This document shows positions 412 to 56,492 of a stretch of DNA of 64,000 bases, piece after piece (the first letter of the stretch is position 1; each line of letters begins with the position of its first letter). Both the position numbers and the translations under genes were made by a program. Source of the stretch: Chthoniobacterales bacterium (GTDB lineage Bacteria > Verrucomicrobiota > Verrucomicrobiia > Chthoniobacterales > UBA6821); contig JBMOFC010000005.1 in NCBI GenBank assembly GCA_049314455.1, positions 5,095 to 69,094 on the forward strand. Reading direction: 5' to 3'. The notes under the pieces were generated by a model. That model saw only the letters and a list, made by a program, of their open reading frames with translations. It ran no database searches and was not told where the DNA came from.

Positions 412-584
412 ATTGATTTAAAATTCTACTGAGGCTGTCCATTGCGGCGGCGCTGCGGTTCTCGTCTCGTCGAGTATTTCCATCTATAATTGGACTTTTG
501 GAGACTATCGACTCCTTGCTCTTAATCTTCCACAGCGAATTTCCAAAGCAATCCCATCATATCCTAATCTTCTGTGAATTTTTC

Positions 585-1982
585 ATGAGCAAGCAAACAA
601 CAGAAGTATTAAAAGATGATTTAATAGCCCTTCTTAGCGATCACTCCTCCCTCATTGAGGATCTAGAACGACGCACAGCATTGGGACATGATGAATGGTT
701 TGCCTCTGCGATGCCAGAAATTGCGGTAGAGCCAGTGACGGCAGAGGAAGTAGCCGCAGTCTTAGCTTATGCTCATGAGCATCGGATTCCAGTTACCACA
801 CGGGGAGCAGGGTATGGTTATGTCGGAGGATGCGTTCCCATCCAAGGTGGAATCTTGCTTTCCACCGTACGGCTCAACCAAATTTTGGAAATTCATCCTG
901 GTGATGGCATCGCAGTCACGCAGCCAGCCGTGATCACCGGAAAACTTCAAGAGGCAGTACGCGCGCAGGGACTTTTTTATCCCCCTGATCCCGCAAGCCT
1001 CGATCATTGTAGTATCGGTGGTAATGTGGCAACCAATGCTGGAGGGCCACGCTGCCTCAAATATGGCGTCACACGTCATTATATTCTAGGACTCCAAGTT
1101 GCCCTTGCCGATGGAACGCTTGTGCGTGTGGGTGGTCGTACACACAAAAACAAAACCGGCTTTGATCTCATTGGAATGTTTGTGGGATCGGAAGGGTTGC
1201 TCGGCATTATCACCGAAGTCACCCTGCGCCTTCTTCCCATGCCACCAGCTCGTGCAACGCTCTCTGCAGGTTTTGCCACCATGCATCAGGCAGCAGCAGC
1301 TGTTCAAGCCATTTTCCGTGCAGGGTATCTTCCCTCAGCGGTTGAAGCAGCTGATCATTTTACACTCGAAGCAGCACGTCGTGATTTAGCAAAAAATCTT
1401 CAAACCCTCATTCCACCGGGACAAGCGCATCTTCTTATTGAAATCGATGGCCAACAAGAAAGCGTCATCAGCGAAACAAAAGCTCTCAAAAAACTGTTAA
1501 TAGAGTGCGATGCACTTCAAGTTGAAGATGCAACCACACCAGAAAGCTGCGATACGATGTGGGCCTTACGACGCTCTTTTTCGATGGCACTGCGCGCGAC
1601 TGGCCTCATTAAACTTAATGAAGATATCGTCGTGCCACGCAGTCGTCTCTGCGATCTGATTGCTTTTACCGAGCAATTACAAAAAGAAAATGGTTTTCCT
1701 ATTGCCTGTTTTGGTCATGCTGGTGATGGCAATATCCATGTCAACATCATGGTCTCGGCTCAGGAACAGCACGATCAGCAAGAAAAAATCGATCGTATGC
1801 TCCAACAACTTTTTCTCCAAATTCTTGAGTGGAATGGAAGTATCACCGGAGAACATGGTATCGGACTGGCCAAGCTACCTTGGTGGAATCTGGCAACCTC
1901 TCCTGAAATACGAGACCTCCACAGCCGCCTCAAGTCAGCACTAGATCCCCGCTATATTTTAAATCCAGGGAAGTTTGTTTAG
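585..1982 (+). CDS. FAD-linked oxidase, GlcD / D-lactate dehydrogenase family
   Basis: FAD-binding PCMH-type N-terminal domain (PVTTRGAGYGYVGGCVP) and C-terminal GEHGIGLAK motif. ATG at 585 is preferred over the TTG at 498, which only adds a non-conserved leader. Confidence 0.75.
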   Translation: MSKQTTEVLKDDLIALLSDHSSLIEDLERRTALGHDEWFASAMPEIAVEPVTAEEVAAVLAYAHEHRIPVTTRGAGYGYVGGCVPIQGGILLSTVRLNQILEIHPGDGIAVTQPAVITGKLQEAVRAQGLFYPPDPASLDHCSIGGNVATNAGGPRCLKYGVTRHYILGLQVALADGTLVRVGGRTHKNKTGFDLIGMFVGSEGLLGIITEVTLRLLPMPPARATLSAGFATMHQAAAAVQAIFRAGYLPSAVEAADHFTLEAARRDLAKNLQTLIPPGQAHLLIEIDGQQESVISETKALKKLLIECDALQVEDATTPESCDTMWALRRSFSMALRATGLIKLNEDIVVPRSRLCDLIAFTEQLQKENGFPIACFGHAGDGNIHVNIMVSAQEQHDQQEKIDRMLQQLFLQILEWNGSITGEHGIGLAKLPWWNLATSPEIRDLHSRLKSALDPRYILNPGKFV

Positions 1983-2154
1983 AGCATTAAAAAGAGTTGT
2001 AGCCGTACATTAGACTTCTTTCAAAACTCGCTGATGGTGATGAAGGACAAAGCGCTCCGGCGCGCAGACCCACAGTGTATAAGTAATACTCGAGGACGCG
2101 AGCACCGAAGTGACGCCGCAATGCGCGATTTTAGACTTTTTTGGACACGCTCTA
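1980..2154. mobile_element. hybrid MITE (family A left terminus + family B/A core), TA-flanked
   Basis: TA-GAGCATTAAAAAGAGTTGTAGCC...CACGCTC-TA. It shares the core GCGCAGACCCACAGTGTA..TACTCGAGGACGCGAGCACCG with copies at 5531, 14498, 17879, 43120 and 51928. Confidence 0.75.
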
Positions 2155-4146: not shown

Positions 4147-4267
4147 GTTTAGGGGTTTAGGATGCTGCAGAAGTAAAATTTGAATTCTAAAAATTTCACT
4201 TTGTATCGTAGCCAAATCATTTTTGAATCTAAAAAGCAACTTTCACTAACTTCCTAAACCTTTAAAC
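4147..4267. repeat. family F palindromic element (GTTTAGG-word arms)
   Basis: GTTTAGGGGTTTAGGATGCTGCAG...CAAATCATTTTTGAATCTAAAAAGCAACTTTCAC...CCTAAACCTTTAAAC. Related copies at 28808, 45560 and 49724. Confidence 0.7.
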
Positions 4268-4407: not shown

Positions 4408-4789
4408 GGGGGCGCACTGGTTTCGACCCGAAGCTGGTTATACGTTCTGCACGCCGAGGATGATCAGTTGGCCTCGTAAAAAATCTGGTCAACCAAATAA
4501 ATGCAAAAAATGCAAATATTGCAGCTAGCTTCGGCGAAACTGCAGCTCTCGCAGCTTAATTAATCTGCGACGTTCTCACACTGATGTCTATTAGGTGTGC
4601 GAGCGACACTAGTAGGCTCGTTTCACGGCGGAGAGACCGCGCTAGGAAACAAGATAATTCGTGGACTCTCGGAGAAGGGTAGCGCGGTGTATCGTAGTTC
4701 TTCTCCTAAATCAAAAATGCACATAAGCATGTAGACGGGCGTATTTGTTAGTCTCGGGCACAGGGGTTCAACTCCCCTCGCCTCCACCA
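4408..4789 (+). ncRNA. ssrA: tmRNA (SsrA)
   Basis: 5' GGGGGCG pairs with 3' CGCCTCC-A-CCA, with a G3:U wobble (alanine identity). T-arm GGGGTTCAACTCCCC. Internal tag frame 4503-4559 encodes AKNANIAASFGETAALAA followed by TAA. Confidence 0.9.
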
Positions 4790-4836: not shown

Positions 4837-4990
4837 GTTGAAGTTCAAAGTTTAAGTTGAAGTGGAAAAACTAGTTCTTACATTCAACACTTAAACATCT
4901 TTTCAAAAATTACTAAAACACTGGACTGCTAAAAATTTTTTGATATCCGCGAAACGTTCAAAACTTCAACTTCAACTTCAACTTCAACTT
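4837..4990. repeat. palindromic element with GTTGAAG-word arms
   Basis: Left arm GTTGAAGTTCAAAGTTTAAGTTGAAGTGG. Right arm is (CTTCAA) x4.5 at 4964-4990, the reverse complement of the left-arm word. Confidence 0.6.
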
Positions 4991-5018: not shown

Positions 5019-6011
5019 ATGCGCCATTTTCAACATCTTCTCGAATCTCACTGGTCGCAAAGTCGTTTTGTCTGTGTGGGACTCGATAGTGAATTGTCCA
5101 AACTTCCCGCTTCTGCGCTACACTATGATCAGGAAGGGAACGTCGATAGTGCTGCAAGCTTGATCGCTTTTAACCGAGCCATCATTGAAGCAACACACGA
5201 TCTTGTCTGTGCCTACAAACCGAACACTGCCTTCTACGAAGCTTATGGAATCGCAGGGATGGTAGCCCTTGAAAAAACAATTTCTCTCATTCATGAAATT
5301 GCACCCACGGTTCCTGTCATTCTAGATGCGAAACGCGCTGACATTGGCAATACTAATAATGGCACTGTGACCTTTGCGTTTGATTACTTAAAAGCTGATG
5401 CGATCACACTTCATCCCTATCTGGGCAAAGAAGCCCTCGAACCCTTCCTAGCGCGCAAAGAAAAAGGGGCTATCATCCTCTGCAAGACCTCTAATGTTGG
5501 TTCAGATGAATTTCAAAATCTCATCGTCAATAGACTTTTTTCCAAACTCGCTGATGATGATGAAGGACAAGGCACTCCGGCGCACAGACCCGCAGTGTAC
5601 AAAGAAGTACCCGAGGACGCGAACACCGGGGTAACGCTGTCATTCGCACCAGCAGTAGAGTTTCGAAAGAAGTCTGATGAAGAGCCACTTTATAAAATCG
5701 TAGCAAGGCGTGTTGCCGAAGAATGGAACGCCAATGGAAACTGCGGTCTTGTAGTCGGCGCCACCTATCCCAAAGAAATCGAAGCTGTACGAAAGATTGC
5801 TCCAAATATGCCACTCCTTATCCCAGGAATTGGGGCTCAAGGAGGGTCTGTCGAACAAACAGTCGCTGCTGCACGCACGCAGCAAGGTACTAGGATGATC
5901 ATCAACTCCTCACGCGGCATTATTTTTGCTTCATGCGAAGAAGATTTTGCAGAAGCTGCACGTTGTGAGACAGAAAAGCTTCATCAGTTGATTCAAAAAG
6001 CAAACTCATGA
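5019..6011 (+). CDS. pyrF: orotidine 5'-phosphate decarboxylase, type 2, carrying a 48-residue repeat-derived insertion
   Basis: VCVGLD, YKPNTAFYE, DAKRADIGNT, KTSN and PGIGAQGG motifs. ATGA overlap with pyrE. 330 aa, against roughly 270-280 aa for type-2 homologues as I recall them. Confidence 0.9.
   Translation: MRHFQHLLESHWSQSRFVCVGLDSELSKLPASALHYDQEGNVDSAASLIAFNRAIIEATHDLVCAYKPNTAFYEAYGIAGMVALEKTISLIHEIAPTVPVILDAKRADIGNTNNGTVTFAFDYLKADAITLHPYLGKEALEPFLARKEKGAIILCKTSNVGSDEFQNLIVNRLFSKLADDDEGQGTPAHRPAVYKEVPEDANTGVTLSFAPAVEFRKKSDEEPLYKIVARRVAEEWNANGNCGLVVGATYPKEIEAVRKIAPNMPLLIPGIGAQGGSVEQTVAAARTQQGTRMIINSSRGIIFASCEEDFAEAARCETEKLHQLIQKANS
5531..5676 (+). mobile_element. family B MITE inserted in frame in pyrF
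   Basis: TA-GACTTTTTTCCAAACTC...GAGTTTCGAAAGAAGTC-TG with inverted termini. 142 nt plus a 2-nt duplication gives 144 nt. A near-identical copy in opposite orientation lies at 51928-52070. Confidence 0.8.
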
Positions 6012-6649
6012 ACCAATCGTCTATTTTAGAGATTCTGCGTAACGTCAACGCCCTCGTTACTGACAGCCATATTGTTTACACCTCAGGCAAGCATGGTTCC
6101 ACTTATATCAACAAAGATGCCCTTTATCCGCACACTGCAGAAACTTCCGAGCTCTGCCGCCTCTTTGCAGAATATTTTGCTCGTGACGCTGTCGATGTTG
6201 TCATCGCTCCTGCGCTAGGCGGGATAATCCTCTCGCAATGGACAGCTCATCATCTTTCTCAACTCAACAAACGTGAAGTCCTCGGTCTCTACGCAGAAAA
6301 AATAGAAGGGACAAAAGACTTCGTTATTAAACGTGGCTACGACAAACTGCTTGCCCAAAAAAATGTTCTCGTTCTCGAAGATGTCCTGACCACGGGAGGC
6401 TCTGTTAAAAAAGTGATCGAGCTCGTACGAACCATGGGAGGTCATGTTGTGGGCCTCGGCGTTCTTTGCAATCGTGGTGGTATTACGAAAGAAGAAGTTG
6501 GTCCTGTTCCAAAACTCCAGGCCCTTGTTTCTATCAACCTAGAAGCCTGGGATCCAGAAGAGTGTCCACTCTGTGCTCAAGGCATTCCGATCAATACCAA
6601 CGTTGGGAAAGGAAGGGAGTTTTTAGAGCGACAGAAGAGAAACCAGTAA
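6008..6649 (+). CDS. pyrE: orotate phosphoribosyltransferase
   Basis: PRPP-binding loop VLVLEDVLTTGGS. Translationally coupled to pyrF. Confidence 0.85.
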   Translation: MNQSSILEILRNVNALVTDSHIVYTSGKHGSTYINKDALYPHTAETSELCRLFAEYFARDAVDVVIAPALGGIILSQWTAHHLSQLNKREVLGLYAEKIEGTKDFVIKRGYDKLLAQKNVLVLEDVLTTGGSVKKVIELVRTMGGHVVGLGVLCNRGGITKEEVGPVPKLQALVSINLEAWDPEECPLCAQGIPINTNVGKGREFLERQKRNQ

Positions 6650-14497: not shown

Positions 14498-14612
14498 TAG
14501 AGCGTTTTAAAAAGAGTTATAGCCAATGTAGTGCCAGGAACGAGGAGCGCAGACCCGCAGTGTATAACTAATACTCGAGGACGCTAGCACCGGCGCGACA
14601 TTGTTACGCGTA
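14498..14612. mobile_element. family A MITE, left half only (truncated)
   Basis: TA-GAGCGTTTTAAAAAGAGTTATAGCC...GAGCGCAGACCCGCAGTGTATAACTAATACTCGAGGACGCTAGCACCGG. The right terminus is absent. Confidence 0.65.
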
Positions 14613-14705
14613 CTCTCAGTAGAGTATGAATACATATTATTAAATTCAGTAGTTCACCTTAAACTTATCACTTAAACTGGCGCAAAATAGTTATTGGCTG
14701 CTTGT

Positions 14706-17868: not shown

Positions 17869-18203
17869 ATAGTGTGTTAGAGCGTTTTAAAAAATTCTGT
17901 AGCCGATGCATTGTCAGAACACGACCCGACGGGAGTCGGTTGGGTAGACTGCTGTTAGGCAGACAAGCAGTGTAGCCAGCTATACTTGAGGACGCGAGCA
18001 CCGGAGTGACACCACAAGGCGTGGCTATAGAGTTTTTTAAAATGCTCTAAATCGATAAAGGCACGCTATAAACTGCCTCTTTTTCCTTATAACTGTGTTC
18101 TCAGATCTTACGTTATCTTCAGATAGCGCCTCAATCTTCGGCCCTTGTCCTAAGAAAAAATTTTAGCGCTTCTAGTCCGTCCTTTTCAATTTAAAACACT
18201 ATA
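17869..18203. mobile_element. family D MITE (copy D1) interrupted by a family A MITE
   Basis: TA-TAGTGTGTTA...TTAAAACACTA-TA. Outside the insertion it is collinear with the uninterrupted copy at 51699-51866. Confidence 0.8.
17879..18050. mobile_element. family A MITE (copy A1) with TA target-site duplication
   Basis: TA-GAGCGTTTTAAAAAATTCTGTAGCC...GGCTATAGAGTTTTTTAAAATGCTC-TA, about 28-nt terminal inverted repeats. The empty site in D2 reads GTGTGTTAAATCG with a single TA. Confidence 0.85.
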
Positions 18204-20653: not shown

Positions 20654-21237
20654 CAGAAAGTTGAAGTTGAAAGTTAAAATTGAAGCAGAAAAAGAGCGAT
20701 GCAGTGCCAGAAATGAGAATACAGCTGGCTGAGAGGTCCCTGGGTAGACTATAGTCTTTTAAAAAGAGAAGGGCGCGATAAGACGATGAAATTTTTCTTG
20801 ATAACAAGGCCGAAGAGCGAGCGCTATCTTAAGATAACGTGAGTGATGAGAACGCTGTTATCAAGAAAAAGAGCAAGTTCAGATCGTGCCCTTATGGATT
20901 TAAAAGACTATACATTGAGGCAGCCAAAATTGTGAGCAGGGTTTCGCCAAGCGAATCAACTCAGTATGAAATATCCGGGTTACGTAAGCAACTTCGTAAA
21001 CAATACTCTCCTTTGCTTCAACTCCAACTATTCGCTTCAACTCCTGCGCAGTATGAAATGACGCCATCCTGCGCCTCAGCAGTAGCATCGACTTAAACAA
21101 GCTAAAAGCGTGTTTGAAAAAGAAATAGAATCGATGAAGTGGCAGGAGCGTCGGCGCGCAGCGAAGGAGTGTACTTAAGGTACTCGATGGAGCGAGCACC
21201 GACGCAATGCGCGATTTTAGACTTTTCCAAATACGCT
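20654..21237. repeat. repeat mosaic (fragments of G-word, D, C and A families)
   Basis: GTTGAAGTTGAAAGTTAAAATTGAAGCAG (20655-), a D-like GCGCTATCTTAAGATAACGTGAG, the C terminus CAGTATGAAATATCCGGGT (20962-20980), and an A-related half-copy at 21141-21240 ending CGCTCTA. Confidence 0.6.
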
Positions 21238-27023: not shown

Positions 27024-28802
27024 ATGTTTGACCGTACTACTTGGATCGCTATTGCACTCTCCATTGCAGGCCTTATTGGCTGGCAATGGTACTACACCAA
27101 TAATTATCTTCCCGCAATAGAAGCTCAACGAAAAGCGACCTTAACGCAGCCCCCGACAACGGCATCATTACTTCAAGAATCAACAGCTCCTACCCCTGCT
27201 CCCAAAAAAGAATTGGTCATCGTCAAAGAGAGCATCCCGGAACTACAAACACGTCGAGAAACCTTTGACACCGCAAAAGCTGAATATCTTTTTTCTGACA
27301 ATAGCGGTGGTATTGAAGCAGTCACTCTGTTTCTTCATTTAGGAGAACAAGATCACAGTCTTCAACTCAACAATCTCTCTCCAACACCGATTGGAGCCTT
27401 GCAAGAAAAATCAGGAGACTCCTTCAATACACTCCGTGGATTCGTCATGAATTCGGATAAAACCGCAGAAAATGTTTCTTTCATACGGAGTGAGCCAAGC
27501 GGTTTGAATATTATTAAAAATTTCACCCTGCCACAAACGACTGGCTCACCGCAAGAATACACCGTCGGACTCGATCTAACTTTTGAAAACAAAGGAACAA
27601 TACCCCTTGATATTCCCTCCTATTTTTTATCGTGCGGCGGAGCAACTCCTGTCCATGCTACTGATGCCTCGACCTACACACGCTTTGATTGGTGTAGCAA
27701 AGGAAAGATGACGACCATCGATGTCAATTGGTTTTCTGCAGGAATGATCCCTATTCTTGGCATCGAGACCCATGCAGCTCGCTCCCTCTATGAAATCAAA
27801 AATCCTGACATCGCCTGGACCGCAGTCACGAGCCAATATTTCTGTACGATTTTGACAGCGCAAGAGAAGGAACAGCACGCTTCGGCTTGGGCTTCTCGTT
27901 TTGAAGATGCTCTTATTCCAAAAACAACCGCCAGCAAACCGATTTATGGGATTCAAGGTGGCTTTGTGCTAGAGCCACTCCACCTTGTTCCAGGAGCCTC
28001 CATCACACAGCACTACACGATTTTTGCAGGTCCTAAAGATTTTGCAGCTTTAGAAAAACTCGGTGACGGCCAACAAAACGTGATGAACTTCGGAACATTT
28101 CACCTTGTCTCCGAATTTTTGCTCTGGGCGATGAATCATTTGAAAAAGATTCTCGGCAACTATGCTGCAGCAATCATCGTCTTAACACTCCTCATTAAAA
28201 CAATTCTCTGGCCCATCCAAAACAAAGCCACAAGCTCGATGAAGCGGATGCAGCTTCTCTCTCCACGCATGACCGAGCTGCGCGCCAAGTACAAAGATAA
28301 TCCGACCAAAATGAACGAAGAGCTCATGAAGCTCTACAAACAATATGGGGTCAATCCCTTTGGAGGATGCCTCCCAATGCTTGTCCAAATTCCAATTTTC
28401 TTTGGATTCTATTCCATGCTCGGAACAGCCATTGAACTCCGCAACAGCCATTTTCTCTGGATCCACGATCTTTCTCAACCTGATACCATTGCTCACTTCC
28501 TCCACTATCCCATCAATCTTCTACCCATCATCATGGCTGGAACAATGCTCTGGCAGATGTCTCTCTCGCCTAAGGGAGGCGATCCTGCACAACAACGGAT
28601 CATGTACCTCATGCCCGTGGTCTTCTTGTGCTTTTGTTATAACTTCGCCTCGGCATTAGCACTCTACTGGACCACCCAAAATCTTTTTTCGATCGGACAA
28701 CTCTACCTCACGCGCAACGCTCCACTGCCACAGTTAGAAGAACCAGCACCCAAGAAAAAAAGAAGATTTCAAAAGGCAAAACCTAAAAAGTCGAAACGGT
28801 AA
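27024..28802 (+). CDS. yidC: membrane protein insertase YidC
   Basis: N-terminal TM, large periplasmic domain, conserved C-terminal 5-TM core (GVNPFGGCLPMLVQIPIFFGFY, ALALYWTTQNLFSIGQ) and a basic tail. Confidence 0.9.
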   Translation: MFDRTTWIAIALSIAGLIGWQWYYTNNYLPAIEAQRKATLTQPPTTASLLQESTAPTPAPKKELVIVKESIPELQTRRETFDTAKAEYLFSDNSGGIEAVTLFLHLGEQDHSLQLNNLSPTPIGALQEKSGDSFNTLRGFVMNSDKTAENVSFIRSEPSGLNIIKNFTLPQTTGSPQEYTVGLDLTFENKGTIPLDIPSYFLSCGGATPVHATDASTYTRFDWCSKGKMTTIDVNWFSAGMIPILGIETHAARSLYEIKNPDIAWTAVTSQYFCTILTAQEKEQHASAWASRFEDALIPKTTASKPIYGIQGGFVLEPLHLVPGASITQHYTIFAGPKDFAALEKLGDGQQNVMNFGTFHLVSEFLLWAMNHLKKILGNYAAAIIVLTLLIKTILWPIQNKATSSMKRMQLLSPRMTELRAKYKDNPTKMNEELMKLYKQYGVNPFGGCLPMLVQIPIFFGFYSMLGTAIELRNSHFLWIHDLSQPDTIAHFLHYPINLLPIIMAGTMLWQMSLSPKGGDPAQQRIMYLMPVVFLCFCYNFASALALYWTTQNLFSIGQLYLTRNAPLPQLEEPAPKKKRRFQKAKPKKSKR

Positions 28803-28807
28803 AAATA

Positions 28808-28970
28808 GTTGTAACTACTCAACAGTGGTGTGTTCTTAAAAAGAAAATTGAAATTTGCAAACGATTGTTTTTGTTTAGGAGTTTAGGAGTTTAGGAGTTT
28901 AGAAAATGAGTGAAAGCTGCTTTGCATTCGTTCAGGTAAGCGGAACGTACCCGTTCACTGAAGGGGTACT
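28808..28970. repeat. family F element (half copy) plus H hairpin
   Basis: ...TTGCAAACGATTGTTTTTGTTTAGGAGTTTAGGAGTTTAGGAGTTTAGAAAATGAGTGAAAGCTGC..., ending in GTACCCGTTCACTGAAGGGGTAC. The reverse complement of its left part recurs at 45680-45743. Confidence 0.7.
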
Positions 28971-43033: not shown

Positions 43034-43119
43034 ATGTTGTGGGGGATTAATATTAGTGACACTAAAATTGAAGGGGCAATTATTAGTCAAAAAAAACCTA
43101 AAGAACCTTTTTTTACCTC
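43034..43119 (+). pseudogene. N-terminal remnant of a second ROK kinase gene, truncated by MITE A2
   Basis: MLWGINISDTKIEGAIISQKKPKEPF parallels LLWGIDLGGTKIEGVIIDQSEPHKAL of the intact neighbour. The DLGGT motif has degenerated to NISDT. The frame runs into the MITE and stops. Confidence 0.5.
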
Positions 43120-43343
43120 TAGAGCATTTTAAAAAATTCTGTAGTTGGGTGCATTGTCAGAATACGACCCGACGGGAGTCGGTCGGGCAGACTGCCGTTA
43201 GGCAGCCCAGCAAGGGCGAGGTGAGCTTCGCAAAGCGAGTCAAACGAGGAGCGCAGACCCGCAGTGTAGCCAGCGATACTCGAGGACACGAGCACCGGAG
43301 TGACAGTACAAGGAGCGGCTACAGAATTTTTTAAAATGCTCTA
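43120..43343. mobile_element. family A MITE (copy A2), TA-flanked
   Basis: TA-GAGCATTTTAAAAAATTCTGTAGTT...GGCTACAGAATTTTTTAAAATGCTC-TA. About 52 nt longer internally than A1. Confidence 0.85.
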
Positions 43344-43346
43344 AGT

Positions 43347-43676: not shown

Positions 43677-44576
43677 TCAGCGTGAACTCACAATCTCGTC
43701 GATCTGCTCTAATGAGAGTTGAGCAGTTGTAGCAATATCTGCATTTGAAAGTCCAAGTTGTTTGAGTTTAACAATCATTTCCACTTTTGCCTTCCTCTCA
43801 CCCTCAGCTAAACCCTCAGCTAAACCCTCAGCTTTTCCTTCACTGAAAGAGGATTCTAAAGTGCTTCTAGAAATCCTCATATCTCCAATGTAGCGCTCAT
43901 AGGCATAGCGCTCTTCTTGTGAGAGATTAAGCAGAGTAAGTGTGTGCGAGGCTTCATGGATTCCTTTGGCTCTGAATTCAGGTTTTACTTCTGATTGGTT
44001 TAAAGCATAGATCCATTCATCGAGTGTATCTTTTATTTTAAGATCAAATCCGCTAATCTTCAGAACGTAGTATTCAGGGAAGACGCGGGAGACTTCGTTC
44101 ACACTTGTAGGGTAGTGCTCTTTTTCTTTTTCACTAAGCTCAAGCCGATCTTTTTTGTGAACTCCGCGAAAATCAGTCGTCCCATGGTAGATATAATCTT
44201 CTCCATGACCTAAGTCGAAGTAGACAATATTGACCGAGATGACGCGTGGGAGATTACCGTAAGGTTCTCCCTCTTTGAGGTGCTCCACCACGACTTTGGA
44301 AACGCCATAAAGCATACGTGAAAGGAAATCCCACTGCCTCTCACATTGAACTTCGATAATGACTTTTTCTCCACCGTTGAGTTGCGCCAAGACATCAACA
44401 CGGTTGGATCTATCCTTGGCATGTTGCTTATTAGACTCGCTCTCAAGCAACGAGATGATTTCGACATCGGTATAAAGCAATTCGGATAAAAATCCTTCGA
44501 GTATCGGAAAATTGGCTTTGCGGCGTAGGAGCGTCTTGATGGCCCAATCGAATTGAATGAGCTTTTTCGGTTTCAT
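43677..44576 (-). CDS. Rpn-family recombination-promoting nuclease / PD-(D/E)XK putative transposase
   Basis: RVDVLAQL.GGEKVIIEVQ core, conserved YVLKI...D..DEWIY.L motif, and C-terminal AEGLAEGLAEG...LGLS...I....LS.EQI tail, as recalled for PDDEXK_2/YhgA-like proteins. Confidence 0.7.
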   Translation of the reverse strand: MKPKKLIQFDWAIKTLLRRKANFPILEGFLSELLYTDVEIISLLESESNKQHAKDRSNRVDVLAQLNGGEKVIIEVQCERQWDFLSRMLYGVSKVVVEHLKEGEPYGNLPRVISVNIVYFDLGHGEDYIYHGTTDFRGVHKKDRLELSEKEKEHYPTSVNEVSRVFPEYYVLKISGFDLKIKDTLDEWIYALNQSEVKPEFRAKGIHEASHTLTLLNLSQEERYAYERYIGDMRISRSTLESSFSEGKAEGLAEGLAEGERKAKVEMIVKLKQLGLSNADIATTAQLSLEQIDEIVSSR

Positions 44577-44647
44577 AGGATTGGGGAGCCTAATCAAAAC
44601 TTGCAAGGAGTGTCAAATCCAATGAGAGAAAGCACTCAGAAGACACG

Positions 44648-45463: not shown

Positions 45464-45559
45464 GATTGTAAGTTAATGCCTTTTAAAAGCAGTTTGGTAA
45501 CTGCTCAGGTCACACATGAAAATGGGTTTCATGTGTGATCAAAAGATGTGCAGTGCCAA

Positions 45560-45743
45560 GTTTAGGAATTTAGGATACAGCAGTAGTAAAAATTTGAATT
45601 TTAAAACATTCATTTGTGGCGCAACCAAATCATTTTTGAATCTAAAAAGCAACTTTCACTCATTTTTTAAACTTCTAAACAAAAACAATCATTTGCAGAT
45701 TTCAATTTTCTTTTTAAGAACACACCCCTGCTGAGTAGTTACG
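45560..45743. repeat. family F element inside the metal-transporter operon
   Basis: GTTTAGGAATTTAGGATACAGCAG...AAATCATTTTTGAATCTAAAAAGCAACTTTCACTCATTTTTTAAACTTCTAAAC, plus a flank shared with 28808-28868. Confidence 0.75.
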
Positions 45744-45761
45744 CAGTTTTTTTTAGTTACG

Positions 45762-49723: not shown

Positions 49724-50084
49724 GGTTTAGGAGTGTAGGGGTTGAGAAGTTTAGAAAATGAGTGAAAGTTGCTTTGTATTCGTTCAGGTAAGCGGAACGC
49801 ACCCGTTCAGGGAACAGCTAATGCTGAAGACGAAAGGGCAGAGAGTCGAATACTCGATGAATAAATTGATCTGCGATTATCAGCATTAGATTCAAACGAT
49901 TGTTTCTTCCTTCTAAAGTGAACTTGCCTATAGCCTACAGCCTTATCCGTTCCTGTGAACGGATACGTTGCTTTTTAGATTCAAAAATGATTTGGTTTCG
50001 CCACAAATGAATTTTTTAAAATTCAAATTTTTACTACTGCTGTATCCTAAACCCCTAAACTCCTAAACTTCTAAACCTCTAACC
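49724..50084. repeat. family F element expanded by an internal family I/H insertion
   Basis: Arms GGTTTAGGAGTGTAGGGGTTGAGAAGTTTAG and CTAAACCCCTAAACTCCTAAACTTCTAAACCTCTAACC. The interior (about 49800-49965) is the inverted counterpart of 63526-63700. Confidence 0.7.
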
Positions 50085-51606: not shown

Positions 51607-51698
51607 TTTGGGTTGCTTTTGCATCCAAAATTATTATTGAAGTGACAAGTTGAAGTCAAAACAGCAAAAAAGATAATTTGTTGTCGACTGCCTTATTT

Positions 51699-51866
51699 TA
51701 TAGTGTGTTAAATCGATAAAGGCACGCTATAAGCTGGATCTTTTCCCTTATGAATACGTTCTCAGATCTTACGTTATCTTCAGATAGCGCCTCAATCTTC
51801 GGCCCCCTTGTCCTAAGAAAAAATTTCAGCGCTTCTAGTGCGCCCTTTTCAATTTAAAACACTATA
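51699..51866. mobile_element. family D MITE, uninterrupted copy (D2)
   Basis: TA-TAGTGTGTTAAATCGATAAAGGCACGCTATAAGC...CAATTTAAAACACTA-TA. Confidence 0.8.
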
Positions 51867-51927: not shown

Positions 51928-52070
51928 TAGATTTCTTTCGAAATTCTACTGCTGATACGAACAACAGTATTGCTCCGGTGCTCGCGCCCTCGAGTACCTC
52001 TTTGTATACTGTGAGTCTGCGCGCCGAAGCGCCTTGTTCTTCATCATCAGCGAGTTTCGAAAGAAATCTA
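51928..52070 (-). mobile_element. family B MITE, intergenic copy (B2)
   Basis: TA-GATTTCTTTCGAAATTC...GAGTTTCGAAAGAAATC-TA. Its reverse complement aligns along the whole pyrF insert. Confidence 0.8.
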
Positions 52071-52196: not shown

Positions 52197-53584
52197 TAGT
52201 TCTTATAAGCATAAAATCCCAACACAGGTAGGATCATGGCAATCACTCCACCAGAGAAAATTGTGAAATAATGCAGGTTGCTTCCAACGTCTATATTACT
52301 CGGAGGAATAAATCCGACGATTAGCGTGATGACACAGCCGATCAGTCCTAAAGAACAAGTGATTCCTGTGCCGAATAGACCACCAGGAATTTTGAAAAGA
52401 TGTTTTGGTACCACCATTTTTGTTTTTAGTTTTACGGCTGCTAAGAACATAAAAACATACATCAAGATATAAAGCTGTGTACTCAAGTCCGTGAGCAACC
52501 AATAAGAACCATTCACACTTGGCATCAGTCCCCAGGCAGAACAAATCAGGCTAACAATGACGGCTTGCGCAATGAGGATTCGAGCTGGCACGCCGTGACG
52601 ATTTTTAGCGGTGAAGAACAAAGGAAGGTATCCGCTTTCAGCAGCTTGCAAAATTCCTTTGGCAGGAGAAATGATATAACCAACCATTCCTGATAAACAA
52701 CCAAAGAGAATCATGAGTACGACTGCTGGAATGAGAAACTTCATATGATAGGCATCAGAAAAAATAGTGAAAATTTGCATCACTCCGTCGACTAAATTGA
52801 TTTGATCTAGCGGTACCACAAGGGCAAAACTAAGTGCTCCAAGGATCATAGATGTTAAAATAATGACTACGGCAAAGAAAAGGGCTCTTGGAAAACTTTT
52901 TTCGGGAGTCTTGACTTCGTTGATATGTACGGTTGCGAGCTCTATTCCAATAAGAGAAGCCATGATGGCTGTGATGGCGGTTAGCGAAGAAAAACTTCCA
53001 GCTCCATAAAAACAAGGGAGAAGGTTGTGCAGATTAAAATGAATTTGAATCGGCTTTCCTAAAAATATCCAAACCGCAGCAAAGATAATGATTAGAAAAA
53101 TAGAAGTGAGGGTTCCTAAAACGGAAAAAATCGTCGCAAAGGAAGCAGAACGGTGAATTCCAAAGAGGTTGAGCATGGTCATTCCCCAAAACACGACGAT
53201 AATCACACTCACAAGATATGTTTTATTATTTGCTAGTTCTGGATTGAAAAAGTAGGTCGCTGTCGCTGCAATAAAGGAGAGAATGGTGGGAAACCAAACA
53301 AGCGTATTGATCCATTGAAGCCAAATGGCGATCAGGCCAACCTTGGGCCCAAAAGCTAAACAGGTCCAATGATAAATGCCTCCACTCCCTCTATATTCTG
53401 TGGAAGCAGAGGAGAGCTGTGCTGAAACTAAAGCGACTGGAATCAAAAAAATAACTGCTGAGAGAAAACAGTAGAAAACAAGTGTCGTGCCAAAAAGAGC
53501 TATTTGAGGAAGGTTTCTGACGTTATCAATAGCACTAATAATTAATAAGGTAAGCGTTAGCTGAGTGAGTTGTTTGGCTCTCAT
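52184..53584 (-). CDS. APC-superfamily amino acid permease (glutamate:GABA antiporter-like subfamily)
   Basis: 12 TM helices. The N-terminal AKQLTQLTLTLLIISAIDNVRNLP resembles the GadC-type start. Confidence 0.75.
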   Translation of the reverse strand: MRAKQLTQLTLTLLIISAIDNVRNLPQIALFGTTLVFYCFLSAVIFLIPVALVSAQLSSASTEYRGSGGIYHWTCLAFGPKVGLIAIWLQWINTLVWFPTILSFIAATATYFFNPELANNKTYLVSVIIVVFWGMTMLNLFGIHRSASFATIFSVLGTLTSIFLIIIFAAVWIFLGKPIQIHFNLHNLLPCFYGAGSFSSLTAITAIMASLIGIELATVHINEVKTPEKSFPRALFFAVVIILTSMILGALSFALVVPLDQINLVDGVMQIFTIFSDAYHMKFLIPAVVLMILFGCLSGMVGYIISPAKGILQAAESGYLPLFFTAKNRHGVPARILIAQAVIVSLICSAWGLMPSVNGSYWLLTDLSTQLYILMYVFMFLAAVKLKTKMVVPKHLFKIPGGLFGTGITCSLGLIGCVITLIVGFIPPSNIDVGSNLHYFTIFSGGVIAMILPVLGFYAYKNYTRS

Positions 53585-54804
53585 TGTGTATAAATTTTCT
53601 TAACGACTTGATAAGCAGGTCGTTTATGTCGGTCAATATCTACAATACCCCACCATTTTTCATGAAAGATCTGATCAGGGTAAGGGCCAGAAATTTTTGG
53701 AATGTTTTTATCGTATGCAAGATCGCTAGGATAGGAGCGAAGCTTAGGGAGCCCTTTCTTATCCAGAATCAAATAAAAACCATTAGCTTCATGGGCCAAA
53801 GGTGAGCCACCACCTTTCCACCATTCATCACAAAATTCAAAAATCGCTCCCCCCACAAGAACATTATCACGATTTTTTTCAGATAAATTATTTTGGATTT
53901 CAGTAAGTAATGACTTGAGTGCCGTGGCTTGTGCTTGGTCATCTTCCCTGTGAGTAATGTCATTAAAAGCATTCGCTCCAAATTCTGAAATATAAAGCGG
54001 CTTACTACTTATTTTTTTCCAACGGTTCAAGCGATCTCCGAATGTAAGACCGTCGTAAATGTTACTCCCATAAAGATCGATCTGTGCATCGGGCAATGAT
54101 TTCCAAAATAACTCTTCTTTGGGAAGATCTCCAAGCACCGTACTAATGGGATGAACGGTATCTTGAGATCTCACTGAAGCAATAGCTGTTTTGAGCAGCT
54201 CCAGCGAAGGATGAGCATTGGGAGCGTTTGTTTCTTCGCTATAGAAATTATTGTAATTCCACTCATTGCCAACTTCCCAAATCAATGTTGAAGGATGGTT
54301 TTTAAGAACCGAGGCTATTTCAGCAACTCTCTTGGTAATCTCAGAAAAAGGAATAAACACCAGACTGTTAAAAATAGGAACAATAGTTTTTAAATGATAT
54401 TTTACTAAGAGATCCAAAATGCGTTGATCTGTTATCGGAAAGTAGGTCCGTATCGTATTGATGCCCGCAGCCTGCATCATTTTAAAATCTCCTTCTATCA
54501 GCACCAAGTCTGAAGCCGTTGGATGGAGCAAAATCACATCGCTCTTATTGCGGGCACTTTTTCCTTTTGGAATAGGGCTATAACAAACGGCTTTGATGAC
54601 AAAAGGAGTCCCATCGACGAGCAATTGTCGGCCTTGTATCTGAATGTTACCTGTGAGTGCAGAGGGTGTTGTTGTAGTATCAGCAGAAGTGACAATGAAG
54701 GGTGTTTTCGTTGCCAAAGAAGGAGAGCTTTCCTTAGCATTTTCAGCACACACAGCAGCAGAAGCCAGCAATATTATGGCAGTAAAAAAGTGAAAAGTAG
54801 TCAT
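53581..54804 (-). CDS. secreted clan GH-A (TIM-barrel) glycoside hydrolase-like protein, GH72/GH5-like motif order
   Basis: Signal peptide, then QGRQLLVDGTPFVIKAVCYSP, AGINTIRTY, LIWEVGNEWNYN (putative acid/base NE) and PLYISEFGANAF (putative nucleophile E). ATGA overlap with the permease start. Confidence 0.6.
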   Translation of the reverse strand: MTTFHFFTAIILLASAAVCAENAKESSPSLATKTPFIVTSADTTTTPSALTGNIQIQGRQLLVDGTPFVIKAVCYSPIPKGKSARNKSDVILLHPTASDLVLIEGDFKMMQAAGINTIRTYFPITDQRILDLLVKYHLKTIVPIFNSLVFIPFSEITKRVAEIASVLKNHPSTLIWEVGNEWNYNNFYSEETNAPNAHPSLELLKTAIASVRSQDTVHPISTVLGDLPKEELFWKSLPDAQIDLYGSNIYDGLTFGDRLNRWKKISSKPLYISEFGANAFNDITHREDDQAQATALKSLLTEIQNNLSEKNRDNVLVGGAIFEFCDEWWKGGGSPLAHEANGFYLILDKKGLPKLRSYPSDLAYDKNIPKISGPYPDQIFHEKWWGIVDIDRHKRPAYQVVKKIYTQ

Positions 54805-55280: not shown

Positions 55281-56492
55281 CTAATCTTTGTTGTGTTTAT
55301 AAAAATCGCTGATGTCGTCATAAACTTTTCTTTTATTTCGATCAATATCAACAATACCCCACCACTTTTCATGAAAGATATGATCGGGAGCAGGGCCGGA
55401 AAATTTAGAAATAGTGTCATCCTCCTGAAAATCATCGGGGTATCTGCGTATTTGAAAATCAGGATTTTTTGTAAAATACCATCCTTCAGGACCATGTTCT
55501 TCTGGCGACCCTGCTCCCTTCCACCACTCATCACTCCATTCAAAAACTGATCCTCCAACAAGAACCTTGTCACGATTTTTAGAAGAGAGATTATCCTGAA
55601 TTTCTCTCAGTAGCGCCATGACAGCAGTAGATTGAGAAGCCTCATCCTTACCACCACTATTGTTATTGATATTAGCATTGAAAGCAGTAGCTCCAAATTC
55701 TGAAACATAGAGTGGTTTACTACTTATTTTTTGCCATCGTGTAAAATAAGATCCAAAGCTACTACCATCGTAAATATTACTCCCGTAAAGCTCTATTTTT
55801 TCATCAATTTTACAATCAGCTATTTTTTGCCAAAAGTCATCGTCTGGTAAATCCCCAACAACAGAGCTCACAGGATGAGTAGTATCTTCCGATTTTATAA
55901 TATCAATAGCATTTTTCAGAAGCTCCAAAGGATCTGTGCTTCCCGTATATTCCTTGCGTTGGGAGTCAGTTAAATCATTAATATAAAATTTATTGTAATT
56001 CCACTCGTTTCCAACCTCCCAAATAAGTGTCGATGGTTTATTTTTGAGTAGAGAGACTGTTTTTCTCAGTTCATCATCAGAGGTCCCAAAAGCACTCTTA
56101 TAGACATTAACAATAGTTCTTAGATGATACTTATCCAGTAAAGAAAGAACCTTCTCATTCGTAATGGGATTATAGATTCGTATCACATTAAATCCTGCCT
56201 CTTGTATCATTTGAAAATCATGCTCAAGAAGAACTAAATTTTCTCGAGTAGGTTCTTTATTAAAAAGATTATCAGTAGAACTCTCTCCCTTAGGAACAGG
56301 GCTGTAGCAAATCGACCTGATGGTAAAAGGAGTTCCATCAATGAGTAGTTGCCTCCCCTGTACCTGAATATTGCCTGTCAGTGGAGCAGGCTTGCCATCA
56401 AGAATAGGAAAAGAAGCACGTGCATCGGCAGCTGCAAAATAAAAGAGTAGCAAAAAACATGTTAATAAATTTTTAAAAAAAGGAGCTCTCAT
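55281..56492 (-). CDS. secreted clan GH-A glycoside hydrolase-like protein, paralogue of 53581-54804
   Basis: Collinear motifs QGRQLLIDGTPFTIRSICYSP, AGFNVIRIY, LIWEVGNEWNYN, PLYVSEFGATAF and the C-terminal HEKWWGIVDIDRNKR. Confidence 0.6.
   Translation of the reverse strand: MRAPFFKNLLTCFLLLFYFAAADARASFPILDGKPAPLTGNIQVQGRQLLIDGTPFTIRSICYSPVPKGESSTDNLFNKEPTRENLVLLEHDFQMIQEAGFNVIRIYNPITNEKVLSLLDKYHLRTIVNVYKSAFGTSDDELRKTVSLLKNKPSTLIWEVGNEWNYNKFYINDLTDSQRKEYTGSTDPLELLKNAIDIIKSEDTTHPVSSVVGDLPDDDFWQKIADCKIDEKIELYGSNIYDGSSFGSYFTRWQKISSKPLYVSEFGATAFNANINNNSGGKDEASQSTAVMALLREIQDNLSSKNRDKVLVGGSVFEWSDEWWKGAGSPEEHGPEGWYFTKNPDFQIRRYPDDFQEDDTISKFSGPAPDHIFHEKWWGIVDIDRNKRKVYDDISDFYKHNKD

Follow-up and report, generated by a model that had tools for sequence, protein, structure and literature searches.

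An in-frame 144-nt palindromic repeat in pyrF of a Chthoniobacterales bacterium and its likeness to the Rickettsia palindromic elements

Background

In this work, we describe a palindromic repeat that lies inside pyrF, the gene for type-2 orotidine monophosphate decarboxylase (OMPDC), in a 64-kb stretch of DNA from a Chthoniobacterales bacterium (contig JBMOFC010000005.1; the whole stretch analysed is called the window below). The repeat is 144 nt long and is read in frame within an open pyrF. Most probably, it is a non-autonomous hairpin mobile element of 144 bp that was inserted in pyrF and that belongs to a family resembling the Rickettsia palindromic elements (RPE), the gene product most likely being active. 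Taken alone, the insertion in pyrF exemplifies a phenomenon that is already known; what is mainly added here is a lineage-wide family with a frame-neutral architecture, many housekeeping hosts and available empty alleles. The repeat had already been noticed in an earlier reading of the same DNA from its letters alone (the sequence-only reading), and we say below where our results agree with that reading and where they depart from it.

Results

The element inside pyrF

The gene and the parts of the element are as follows (positions in the window).

5019..6011, plus strand: pyrF, type-2 OMPDC with insert (open reading frame (ORF) of 330 codons; PF00215; PDB matches; AlphaFold2 (AF2) and Foldseek)
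5532..5675, plus strand: 144-nt palindromic element (AGAC...GTCT), read in frame as R172-S219 (exact unit, hairpin, member of the family by nhmmer)
5533..5549, plus strand: left terminal inverted repeat GACTTTTTTCCAAACTC (read directly; pairs with 5658-5674 in the fold)
5658..5674, plus strand: right terminal inverted repeat GAGTTTCGAAAGAAGTC (read directly; predicted fold)
5579..5635, plus strand: conserved hairpin apex GCGCACAGACCCGCAGTGTA...TACCCGAGGACGCGAACACCGG, common to all subfamilies (repeat families D6 and D7; invariant columns)
5529..5531, plus strand: left copy of a putative 3-bp target duplication (AAT, N171; single AGT codon in run X4, described below; analogy with IscS)
5676..5678, plus strand: right copy of the putative 3-bp target duplication (GAT, D220), the 49th extra codon (net 147 nt against X4; 49-column gap)

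The 142-nt string that the sequence-only reading had placed at 5533-5674 was found there exactly, and shuffled sequences gave 0 matches. Its termini are inverted, as had been claimed, and are complementary at 15 of 17 positions. The pyrF unit folds as a single long hairpin (-53.4 kcal/mol, z = -5.35) and has TG as its right flank. The forward reading of the insert, RLFSKLA...AVEFRKKS, is stop-free; within the open ORF 5019..6011 its translation is exactly that given before, with ...QNLIVNRLFSK... and ...EFRKKSDEEPLYK... as the junction peptides. A CAGTAGA motif, which contains GTAG, is located at about 5654-5660, just upstream of the right terminal repeat and overlapping its first three bases. 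A scan with Rfam 15 returned only a transfer-messenger RNA (tmRNA) in the window at the gathering threshold and no match in 5480-5730 up to E = 1, and no similarity was found between the unit and plasmids.

Empty and filled alleles

In an alignment of 14 PyrF sequences, the 13 homologues share a single 49-column gap between N171 and E221, and none of them carries a homologous segment, in keeping with the insertion proposed by the sequence-only reading. At this site the orthologues have just 2 residues between the conserved N and xLY, not the approximately 8-10 that the sequence-only reading had given for type-2 PyrF proteins. A comparison with the pyrF genes of relatives at the DNA level gave the same gap, and 119 other best PyrF homologues are 273-316 aa long, against 330 in the window. 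In addition, pyrF is uninterrupted at the syntenic loci of four relatives (L003-L006), which have the gene order KAS-DUF4870-(tmRNA)-pyrF-pyrE-ABC-F in common; these loci contain 0 copies of the repeat.

Both allelic states were found in metagenomic runs. Runs X1-X3, which are freshwater metagenomes from one study, contain the filled allele; an X2 contig covers 5256-5850 with 0 differences, and X1 contigs cross both junctions. Run X4, which comes from another study, contains a relative that is about 92% identical in pyrF and has the empty site: its contig runs from 5522 to 5678 through 8 nt (TCTGTGAG), reading QNL-SVS-EEPLY, which is the length found in all orthologues. The same run additionally holds a copy of the repeat at a different locus. 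An ancestral PyrF loop is ruled out by the homologues and the empty alleles, and an assembly artefact is ruled out by the independent contigs across both junctions. These sequence comparisons indicate that the pyrF element is a recent insertion.

Net size and target duplication

When the filled pyrF is compared with the empty site of X4, 155 nt stand in the place of 8 nt, so that the gene is longer by 147 nt net, which is 49 codons. The same net gain (+147 nt or +49 aa) was obtained in 4 of 4 measured events, namely pyrF, two sites (A and B) in the gene for IscS, and the gene for PheS. The sequence-only reading had counted 142 nt plus a 2-nt TA duplication, that is, 144 nt or 48 codons, and had proposed an element that targets TA. 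This 2-bp model is contradicted by the gain in the four events and by empty sites that contain no TA (pyrF, GTGAGTGAA in X4; IscS site B, GCGTTGAGG in the related locus L039). The pyrF unit has TG rather than TA on its right.

The IscS of L034 carries two copies; both sites are empty in L042, with +147 nt each, and site B is also empty in L039, which is 90-97% identical to L034 and shows a single TTG there. In L034, site B is bracketed by an exact TTG on either side and site A by an exact TGA; a single original TGA at site A is deduced, because the empty site of L042 is too divergent. The PheS of L010 has 386 residues, against 337 in its nearest homologues, with a single 49-residue block and 93% identity elsewhere, and its flank triplets are ambiguous as a duplication. 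The flank duplications found are TTG, TGA, ACT and AAA, and are exact at IscS site A, IscS site B, the copy at 51930 in the window and L037. On the sequence evidence, the simplest reading is that a 144-nt element (5532-5675) plus a 3-bp target duplication makes up the 147 nt. The 3-bp duplication rests mainly on the pairs of empty and filled sites, because the triplet signal across the 57 full copies is weak; at pyrF such a duplication is presumed by analogy with the exact TTG and TGA duplications of IscS.

Some further details of the IscS loci were observed. The cysteine desulfurase (IscS/NifS-type) gene of L034, at 1736-2932, has its two in-frame copies 150 nt apart. In its relative in L039 (106-1211), only the first site is filled, and that copy has a further insertion of about 80 nt and is still in frame. 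L034 and L039 differ much more strongly in the 12 nt to the right of IscS site B than elsewhere in the gene.

In-frame copies in other genes

In the window and the related loci, 22 stop-free stretches of at least 180 codons span a copy and leave the frame open for 90 nt or more to either side of it. From this set we took out duplicates, L068 as an opposite-strand artefact, and L008 purA and L066 as leader cases. About 16-20 copies are in frame in genes, 14 of them Pfam-confirmed, and the Pfam-confirmed host gene families number at least 12. Pfam domains that are split by the copy, span it or lie on both sides of it were found in PolX, RsmE, IscS (two sites and the L039 orthologue), AcrB, GspE, a beta-lactamase-fold hydrolase, an HI0933-like flavoprotein, PheS, HrpB, HscA and, in a Chthoniobacterales metagenome-assembled genome (MAG), UvrA. 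For two further hosts, L032 with a metallo-beta-lactamase-fold protein and L040 with a CxxCxxCC protein, the support from Pfam is confined to one side of the insert. The likeness to the RPE that the sequence-only reading had drawn from pyrF is stronger than that reading could show, with in-frame members of the family in many further real genes.

The genic copies have mainly two readings, one frame for each orientation. Six distinct events, pyrF among them, read the element in its own orientation and encode (R/K)xxSKLA...AVEF(G/R/S)K(R/K)S; nine further distinct events read it in the opposite orientation and encode ...NST...GVAPVLASSSI..TLSRCAP.... Among full copies, stops are absent from the opposite-orientation frame in 40 of the 45 non-genic and all 19 genic ones, and from the forward frame in 14/45 and 14/19, respectively. 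With fixed alignment boundaries, 14 of the 16 genic copies, that of pyrF included, measure exactly 144 nt; of the 41 non-genic copies, which are mostly 142-143 nt long, 8 do so (Fisher p = 3e-6). Genes retain only copies that are free of stops and neutral to the frame, a pattern that implies translation of the inserts.

Conserved apex and covarying stems

The 57-copy alignment (A4) has a near-invariant centre, GCGCRCAG...AGTGTA-N-TACTCGAKGRCGCGAGCACCG. Also near-invariant is the CAGTAGA motif of the right arm (columns 125-132), the TAG of which would act as a stop codon in two forward frames out of three. Opposite the motif, the left arm has TCGCTG, so that the stem is imperfectly paired there. 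Subfamilies differ in the outer 40 nt of either arm, which are nevertheless complementary within each copy. RNAalifold predicted 37 pairs, 28 of which show compensatory double changes. Paired cells amount to 91.1%, against 73.7% in shuffled alignments and 33-46% when the partners are slid, and the covariation score is 0.509 against 0.188, the observed score being reached by 0 of 500 shuffles. Note that the covariation cells count sequences rather than independent events, and that the subfamily structure inflates these figures. A comparison of G-U with A-C cells, meant to tell RNA from DNA structure, gave 173 to 56; it is biased, since the same strand had served to predict the structure, and a single pair contributes 50 of the G-U cells.

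Copies in the window and beyond

The window contains 8 copies, identified by repeat finding and nhmmer, and all except the pyrF copy are intergenic.

417-550, minus strand: divergent copy with a gene fragment of enoyl-ACP reductase type (adh_short_C2) on one side and an FAD-oxidase gene on the other
2013-2148, plus strand: intergenic, nearly full-length, chimeric copy
14505-14637, plus strand: intergenic copy of another terminal subfamily
17939-18046, plus strand: intergenic variant with the shared core and right arm and a different, longer left arm
21113-21231, plus strand: intergenic, divergent copy
43228-43340, plus strand: intergenic variant with extra left-arm sequence (whole unit about 43119-43346), adjoining a PDDEXK_2 gene
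51930-52068, minus strand: intergenic full copy of the pyrF subfamily, flanked by ACT/ACT

A profile search gave 88 copies in 389 kb, that is, in the window and the related loci together. The recurrence of the unit on which the sequence-only reading relied thus holds, many times beyond the copies first seen, and its count was too low by five copies in the window (417-550, 14505-14637, 17939-18046, 21113-21231 and 43228-43340). The full copy that it had reported in opposite orientation near 51928-52070, in non-coding DNA, was recovered at 51930-52068; it is 83% identical to the pyrF unit over 121 nt (nhmmer E = 4.5e-26) and has a fold z of -7.75. The supposed half copy at about 2010-2135 turned out to be the nearly full-length chimera at 2013-2148, the left arm of which is pyrF-type (TAGACTTC...) and the right arm of which (…GCGCGATTTTAGACTTTTTTGGACACGCTCTA) is like the TAGAGGGTGTC... 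subfamily and the copy at 21113-21231. This chimera suggests recombination between copies at the conserved core.

A search with the core pattern yielded 2 contigs of the Chthoniobacterales MAG JAIEQF01 and 66 metagenome contigs of the Joint Genome Institute (JGI). A profile of the two element-encoded peptides, run against 5.8 billion proteins, gave 18 hits, mostly short fragments and hence not to be taken as a census, with the taxonomy Verrucomicrobiota, Chthoniobacterales; two of them provide candidate host contexts, HPr and a protein named in its source as dTDP-glucose dehydratase (the insert position being a candidate). The nearest named homologues belong to Chthoniobacterales and Verrucomicrobiae, and the window strain is labelled freshwater.

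Copies were also seen in leaders and beside other repeats. The copy at 417-550 overlaps only the stop-free leader of the ORF 498..1982, a FAD-linked oxidase: the listed TTG start is inside the copy. The true start is probably downstream, with the repeat in the 5' leader, because the Pfam domains begin at residue 73. At 11489-11816 of L008, three tandem copies with identical spacers (ctgcaaataaaa) are located directly upstream of a purA-like gene (named by translation) and form a stop-free leader, which a gene caller could take for an N-terminal extension. A 170-nt direct repeat (18035-18203 and 51696-51866, 88-95% identical) stands beside the copies at 17939-18046 and 51930-52068, and may form a composite unit with them or mark a common insertion hotspot.

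State of the host gene and its product

The neighbours of pyrF are the following.

6008..6649, plus strand: pyrE, orotate phosphoribosyltransferase (Pfam); its start overlaps the pyrF stop (ATGA)
4408-4789, upstream of pyrF: tmRNA gene (Rfam match)

The translational coupling of pyrF to pyrE that had been described is confirmed by this ATGA overlap, with pyrE starting at 6008. The pyrF product was assigned to type-2 OMPDC on the basis of a Pfam match above threshold, the catalytic network, the phosphate loop and the TIM-barrel fold (3qw3). The match to PF00215 (E = 2e-30, 106.8 bits, cut-off 27) is broken in two stretches, one covering residues 19-169 and the other beyond the insert, and the PDB sequence matches to Leishmania OMPDC are also split (residues 42-170 and 222-307). 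The statement that all catalytic motifs are intact proved right: each residue in the columns that are invariant in 55 PyrF homologues is kept, including D23 and the catalytic residues K67, D103, K105, D108 and S158. In the PGIGAQGG loop, G270, G272 and G276 are invariant and present, and Q274 is nearly invariant.

The AF2 model, calculated from the 55-sequence alignment, has a mean pLDDT of 87.2 and a pTM of 0.85. The barrel outside the insert has a pLDDT above 90 overall (91 from residue 221 on; 80 in the block 161-170), and a short helix is predicted at 170-182. The ten-residue blocks over 171-220 have mean values of 61, 50, 49, 47 and 51, so that the insert is modelled as a low-confidence loop. 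The sequence-only reading had suggested a structural model to see whether the insert forms a surface loop; in the model the barrel is confident, and the insert, at a pLDDT of about 47-61, is placed with low confidence. Foldseek superposed the model on Leishmania OMPDC 3qw3 with a TMt of 0.94-0.95 and a root mean square deviation of 1.9 A (3qw3_A) or 4.7 A (3qw3_B). The insert is located in the link from strand beta6 (ILCKTSN, followed by the short EFQ helix) to helix alpha6. Compared with known type-2 OMPDC (PF00215; PDB 3qw3, 4mjz, 3r89), the window protein is alike in fold, catalytic residues and pyrF-pyrE operon, and differs in having 49 extra residues between beta6 TSN...EFQ and alpha6.

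The pyrF genes of the window and of the X4 relative differ at 22 single bases, of which 18 are synonymous and 4 non-synonymous, so that pyrF is probably functional. The earlier impression that the gene looks functional is favoured by this excess and by the intact catalytic columns; as to the protein itself, we infer that the insert is translated and that the enzyme is active. Judging from sequence and model, the product would most likely be an active OMPDC with a flexible, repeat-derived surface loop at residues 172-220.

Other repeats in the window

A second, unrelated intergenic repeat family occurs at 4147-4267, 28792-28962, 45559-45761 and 49725-50061. Its copies are about 100-200 nt long, 79-96% alike and found in both orientations; some end in GTTTAGGAG heptamer runs, and one is just upstream of the tmRNA gene. 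Intergenic hexamer runs of the (AACTTC)n / (GTTGAA)n type occur at 4960-4990, 4836, 14273, 20659, 31914, 49457 and 51635, and the motif is abundant well beyond this genome, because the contig depth at 4962-4990 is 95 to about 617 in X3 and X4. Finally, 53581-54804 and 55281-56492 are adjacent minus-strand paralogues with 74-78% DNA identity over several blocks, which look like a tandem duplication.

Discussion

Proposed mechanism

We propose that a 144-bp hairpin element landed in pyrF in the recent ancestry of the organism and that the insertion probably duplicated 3 bp of the target, adding 147 bp. Because 144 and 3 are both multiples of three, the downstream frame would be kept wherever the element lands, and the remaining requirements would be a stop-free reading frame and a site that tolerates about 49 extra residues. 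The pyrF copy would have landed between beta6 and alpha6, in the orientation and frame that give RLFSKLA...AVEFRKKS. More generally, copies of 144 nt in either stop-free frame would survive in housekeeping genes, and copies of other lengths only between genes. Mobilisation would presumably take place in trans, by an enzyme encoded elsewhere.

Candidates for such an enzyme were considered. The ORF between the inverted copies at 417-550 and 2013-2148 was rejected, being an ordinary FAD-linked oxidase. A gene for a PD-(D/E)XK 'transposase' (PF12784, PDDEXK_2) is located at 43677-44606 on the minus strand, about 340 nt from the variant copy at 43119-43346; in L069 (51-251, 512-1078), a homologous PDDEXK_2 fragment, a variant copy of the same kind and a fragment of a DDE_3 transposase of the type of the insertion sequence (IS) IS630 occur together. 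These associations could be either a repeat junkyard or a clue to mobilisation, and no link of the PDDEXK_2 gene or the L069 DDE_3 fragment to the ends of the element could be demonstrated.

Points against the proposal and alternative explanations

Several observations weigh against the proposed mechanism or the activity of the product. The insert is on the catalytic face of the barrel, in a beta-alpha connection 13 residues past the substrate-binding Ser158, so that an effect on PyrF activity is possible. The synonymous excess spans the whole divergence from the X4 relative, beyond the time since the insertion, and an open frame alone is weak evidence, since the forward frame is also stop-free in the 14 of 45 non-genic copies counted above. 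Two metatranscriptomes of the same study as the filled alleles gave nil pyrF coverage and are uninformative either way, as they matched only short conserved tmRNA pieces from other organisms. A second pyrF may exist elsewhere in the genome. As for the element, the triplets that flank it in pyrF differ (AAT and GAT, a 2/3 match, with AGT in X4), and a 3-nt flank repeat was found in 12 of 57 full copies against 1-11 at control offsets, a modest signal. The apex is conserved and the termini differ from one subfamily to the next, the opposite of a classical MITE (a miniature transposable element with inverted repeats), and no autonomous partner or transposase with matching ends turned up, no systematic search having been made.

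Some of these points would also fit an insertion that killed pyrF and left a young pseudogene in a cell that uses pyrimidine salvage or another pyrF copy. The catalytic-face position and the nil coverage in the two metatranscriptomes are in line with this, and an open ORF can arise without selection, because about one third of non-genic copies are stop-free in the forward frame. We nevertheless regard a dead gene as unlikely, given that the 330-codon ORF is intact with all invariant catalytic columns kept, that 18 of the differences from the empty-site relative are synonymous and 4 are not, that the overlap with pyrE is retained, and that the family is tolerated in the essential single-copy pheS (93% identical outside the insert) and also in iscS, hscA and uvrA. 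It is hardly credible that the protein is made without the 49 residues because the segment is removed or bypassed after transcription, through hairpin processing or translational bypass. The RNA can form a very stable 144-nt hairpin; however, the filtering of genic copies for a length divisible by three and for stop-free frames is expected only if the insert is translated. No RNA joints were seen, at nil pyrF RNA coverage, and we know of no bacterial mechanism that rejoins an mRNA cut at such a hairpin.

The mode of movement has its own alternatives. A MITE of the classical IS630/Tc1-mariner kind, 142 nt long, inserted at TA and duplicating it, would account for the many copies flanked by T...A (TAGAC...GTCTA), and the IS630-type DDE_3 fragment in L069 adjoins a variant copy; however, it predicts +144 nt where 147 nt was observed in 4 of 4 events, the empty targets in pyrF and IscS site B lack TA, the duplicated triplets are TTG, TGA, ACT and AAA, and the T...A may be taken for the palindrome's outermost pair. 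The termini, moreover, are not conserved in the family. We consider this type of element very improbable. Movement of a repetitive extragenic palindromic (REP)-like element by a REP-associated tyrosine transposase (RAYT) of the Y1 (HUH) kind, which would recognise a hairpin and a GTAG tag, is a better but still improbable explanation. The near-invariant GTAG in the right arm agrees with it, the conserved apex with variable, complementary stems suggests that the folded strand rather than the termini is recognised, and intragenic GTAG-tagged REPs are most numerous in a verrucomicrobium, Opitutus terrae (PMC3733652). On the other hand, the unit is 144 nt rather than 20-40 nt long, its GTAG is internal, about 18 nt from the end, and no RAYT gene was noticed among the annotated neighbours in the window, no genome-wide search having been made. 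Flanking 3-nt duplications are not expected of HUH transposition (IS200/IS605, RAYT); together with the single 144-nt hairpin, the duplications found here argue against mobilisation of this type.

Possible, though doubtful, is that the family is, instead of a degenerate MITE, a distinct selfish element recognised via its hairpin apex (with GTAG) and not via its termini, in which the 144 + 3 arithmetic evolved as a frame-neutral design for spreading into coding sequence, with an independent origin and a new kind of mobilisation. If so, it would be a second independent origin of protein-coding palindromes, in free-living bacteria, and would keep providing essential enzymes with new loops of 48 residues. 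We keep to the proposal of a non-autonomous, RPE-like hairpin element that probably inserted in a pyrF which most likely remains active.

Significance

Protein-coding palindromes on the scale of RPE-1 have so far been treated as a peculiarity of Rickettsia. Here, 144-nt units are in frame in pyrF, pheS, iscS, hscA, uvrA, hrpB, gspE, acrB and other genes of uncultured Verrucomicrobiota. They offer a second, independent system, with filled and empty alleles in closely related strains, for asking how enzymes absorb about 49 random-looking residues, whether the inserts turn functional, and what moves the elements. Selection on frame is directly measurable, because of the 144 + 3 rule and the contrast between 144-nt genic and 142-143-nt intergenic copies. 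The family also matters for annotation, as the inserts split Pfam domains and inflate the protein lengths of MAGs, and should not be mistaken for misassemblies or novel domains.

Comparison with known systems

RPE-1 elements (Ogata et al., Science 2000 and Genome Res 2002) are described, in the summaries given in PMC10969869 and PMC3733652, as palindromes of about 100-150 bp with many copies. According to a 2024 review, the in-frame frequency of the RPE is unusually high, and similar cases elsewhere have only been conjectured (PMC10969869). Like the RPE, the present family consists of multicopy palindromes of about 100-150 bp, a large fraction of which lie in frame within housekeeping genes that are unrelated to one another (here, Pfam confirms 12 or more host families); both encode a recognisable peptide per family, have hosts that are presumed functional with inserts at presumably tolerant sites, and are without a known transposase. 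They differ in lineage, since the RPE belong to obligate intracellular Alphaproteobacteria and the present family to uncultured Verrucomicrobiota (Chthoniobacterales-like) in metagenomes, and in anatomy, since the present unit is exactly 144 nt long, with an inferred 3-bp duplication, a conserved apex, covarying stems, and both orientations readable in one frame each.

Di Nocera et al. (2013) found GTAG/CGTC-tagged REPs of 20-40 bp inside genes, most abundantly in Opitutus terrae and R. conorii, the hosts including uvrA and tRNA synthetase genes (PMC3733652). These intragenic REPs and the present family are alike in having verrucomicrobial host genes that include uvrA and tRNA synthetase genes, a GTAG motif and compensatory stem variation. 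However, the REPs are 20-40 bp long, encode 20-30 residues as dimers, carry a terminal tag and are RAYT-associated, whereas the repeat described here forms one 144-nt hairpin, encodes 48 residues and has an internal GTAG and flank duplications. A palindrome of 20-40 bp with a terminal GTAG/CGTC tag is thus not what was found.

Bacterial MITEs, such as Correia/NEMIS of Neisseria, ERIC/RU-1 of enterobacteria and QMITE of Coxiella, sometimes form in-frame fusions with genes (PMC2759123, PMC10969869). The 144-nt unit is like them in its small size, lack of transposase coding or a long ORF of its own, terminal inverted repeats, many copies and, putatively, target duplications. In contrast, classical MITE termini are conserved and match a parent IS, while here the termini vary and the centre is conserved; the genic fraction, about one copy in five, is unusually high, and the TA insertion with TA duplication of IS630/Tc1-mariner elements was not found. 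We therefore do not file the pyrF repeat family as a member of the RPE, REP/RAYT or IS630-MITE families; by analogy of behaviour rather than of sequence, it works like the RPE, as a set of in-frame palindromic mobile repeats.

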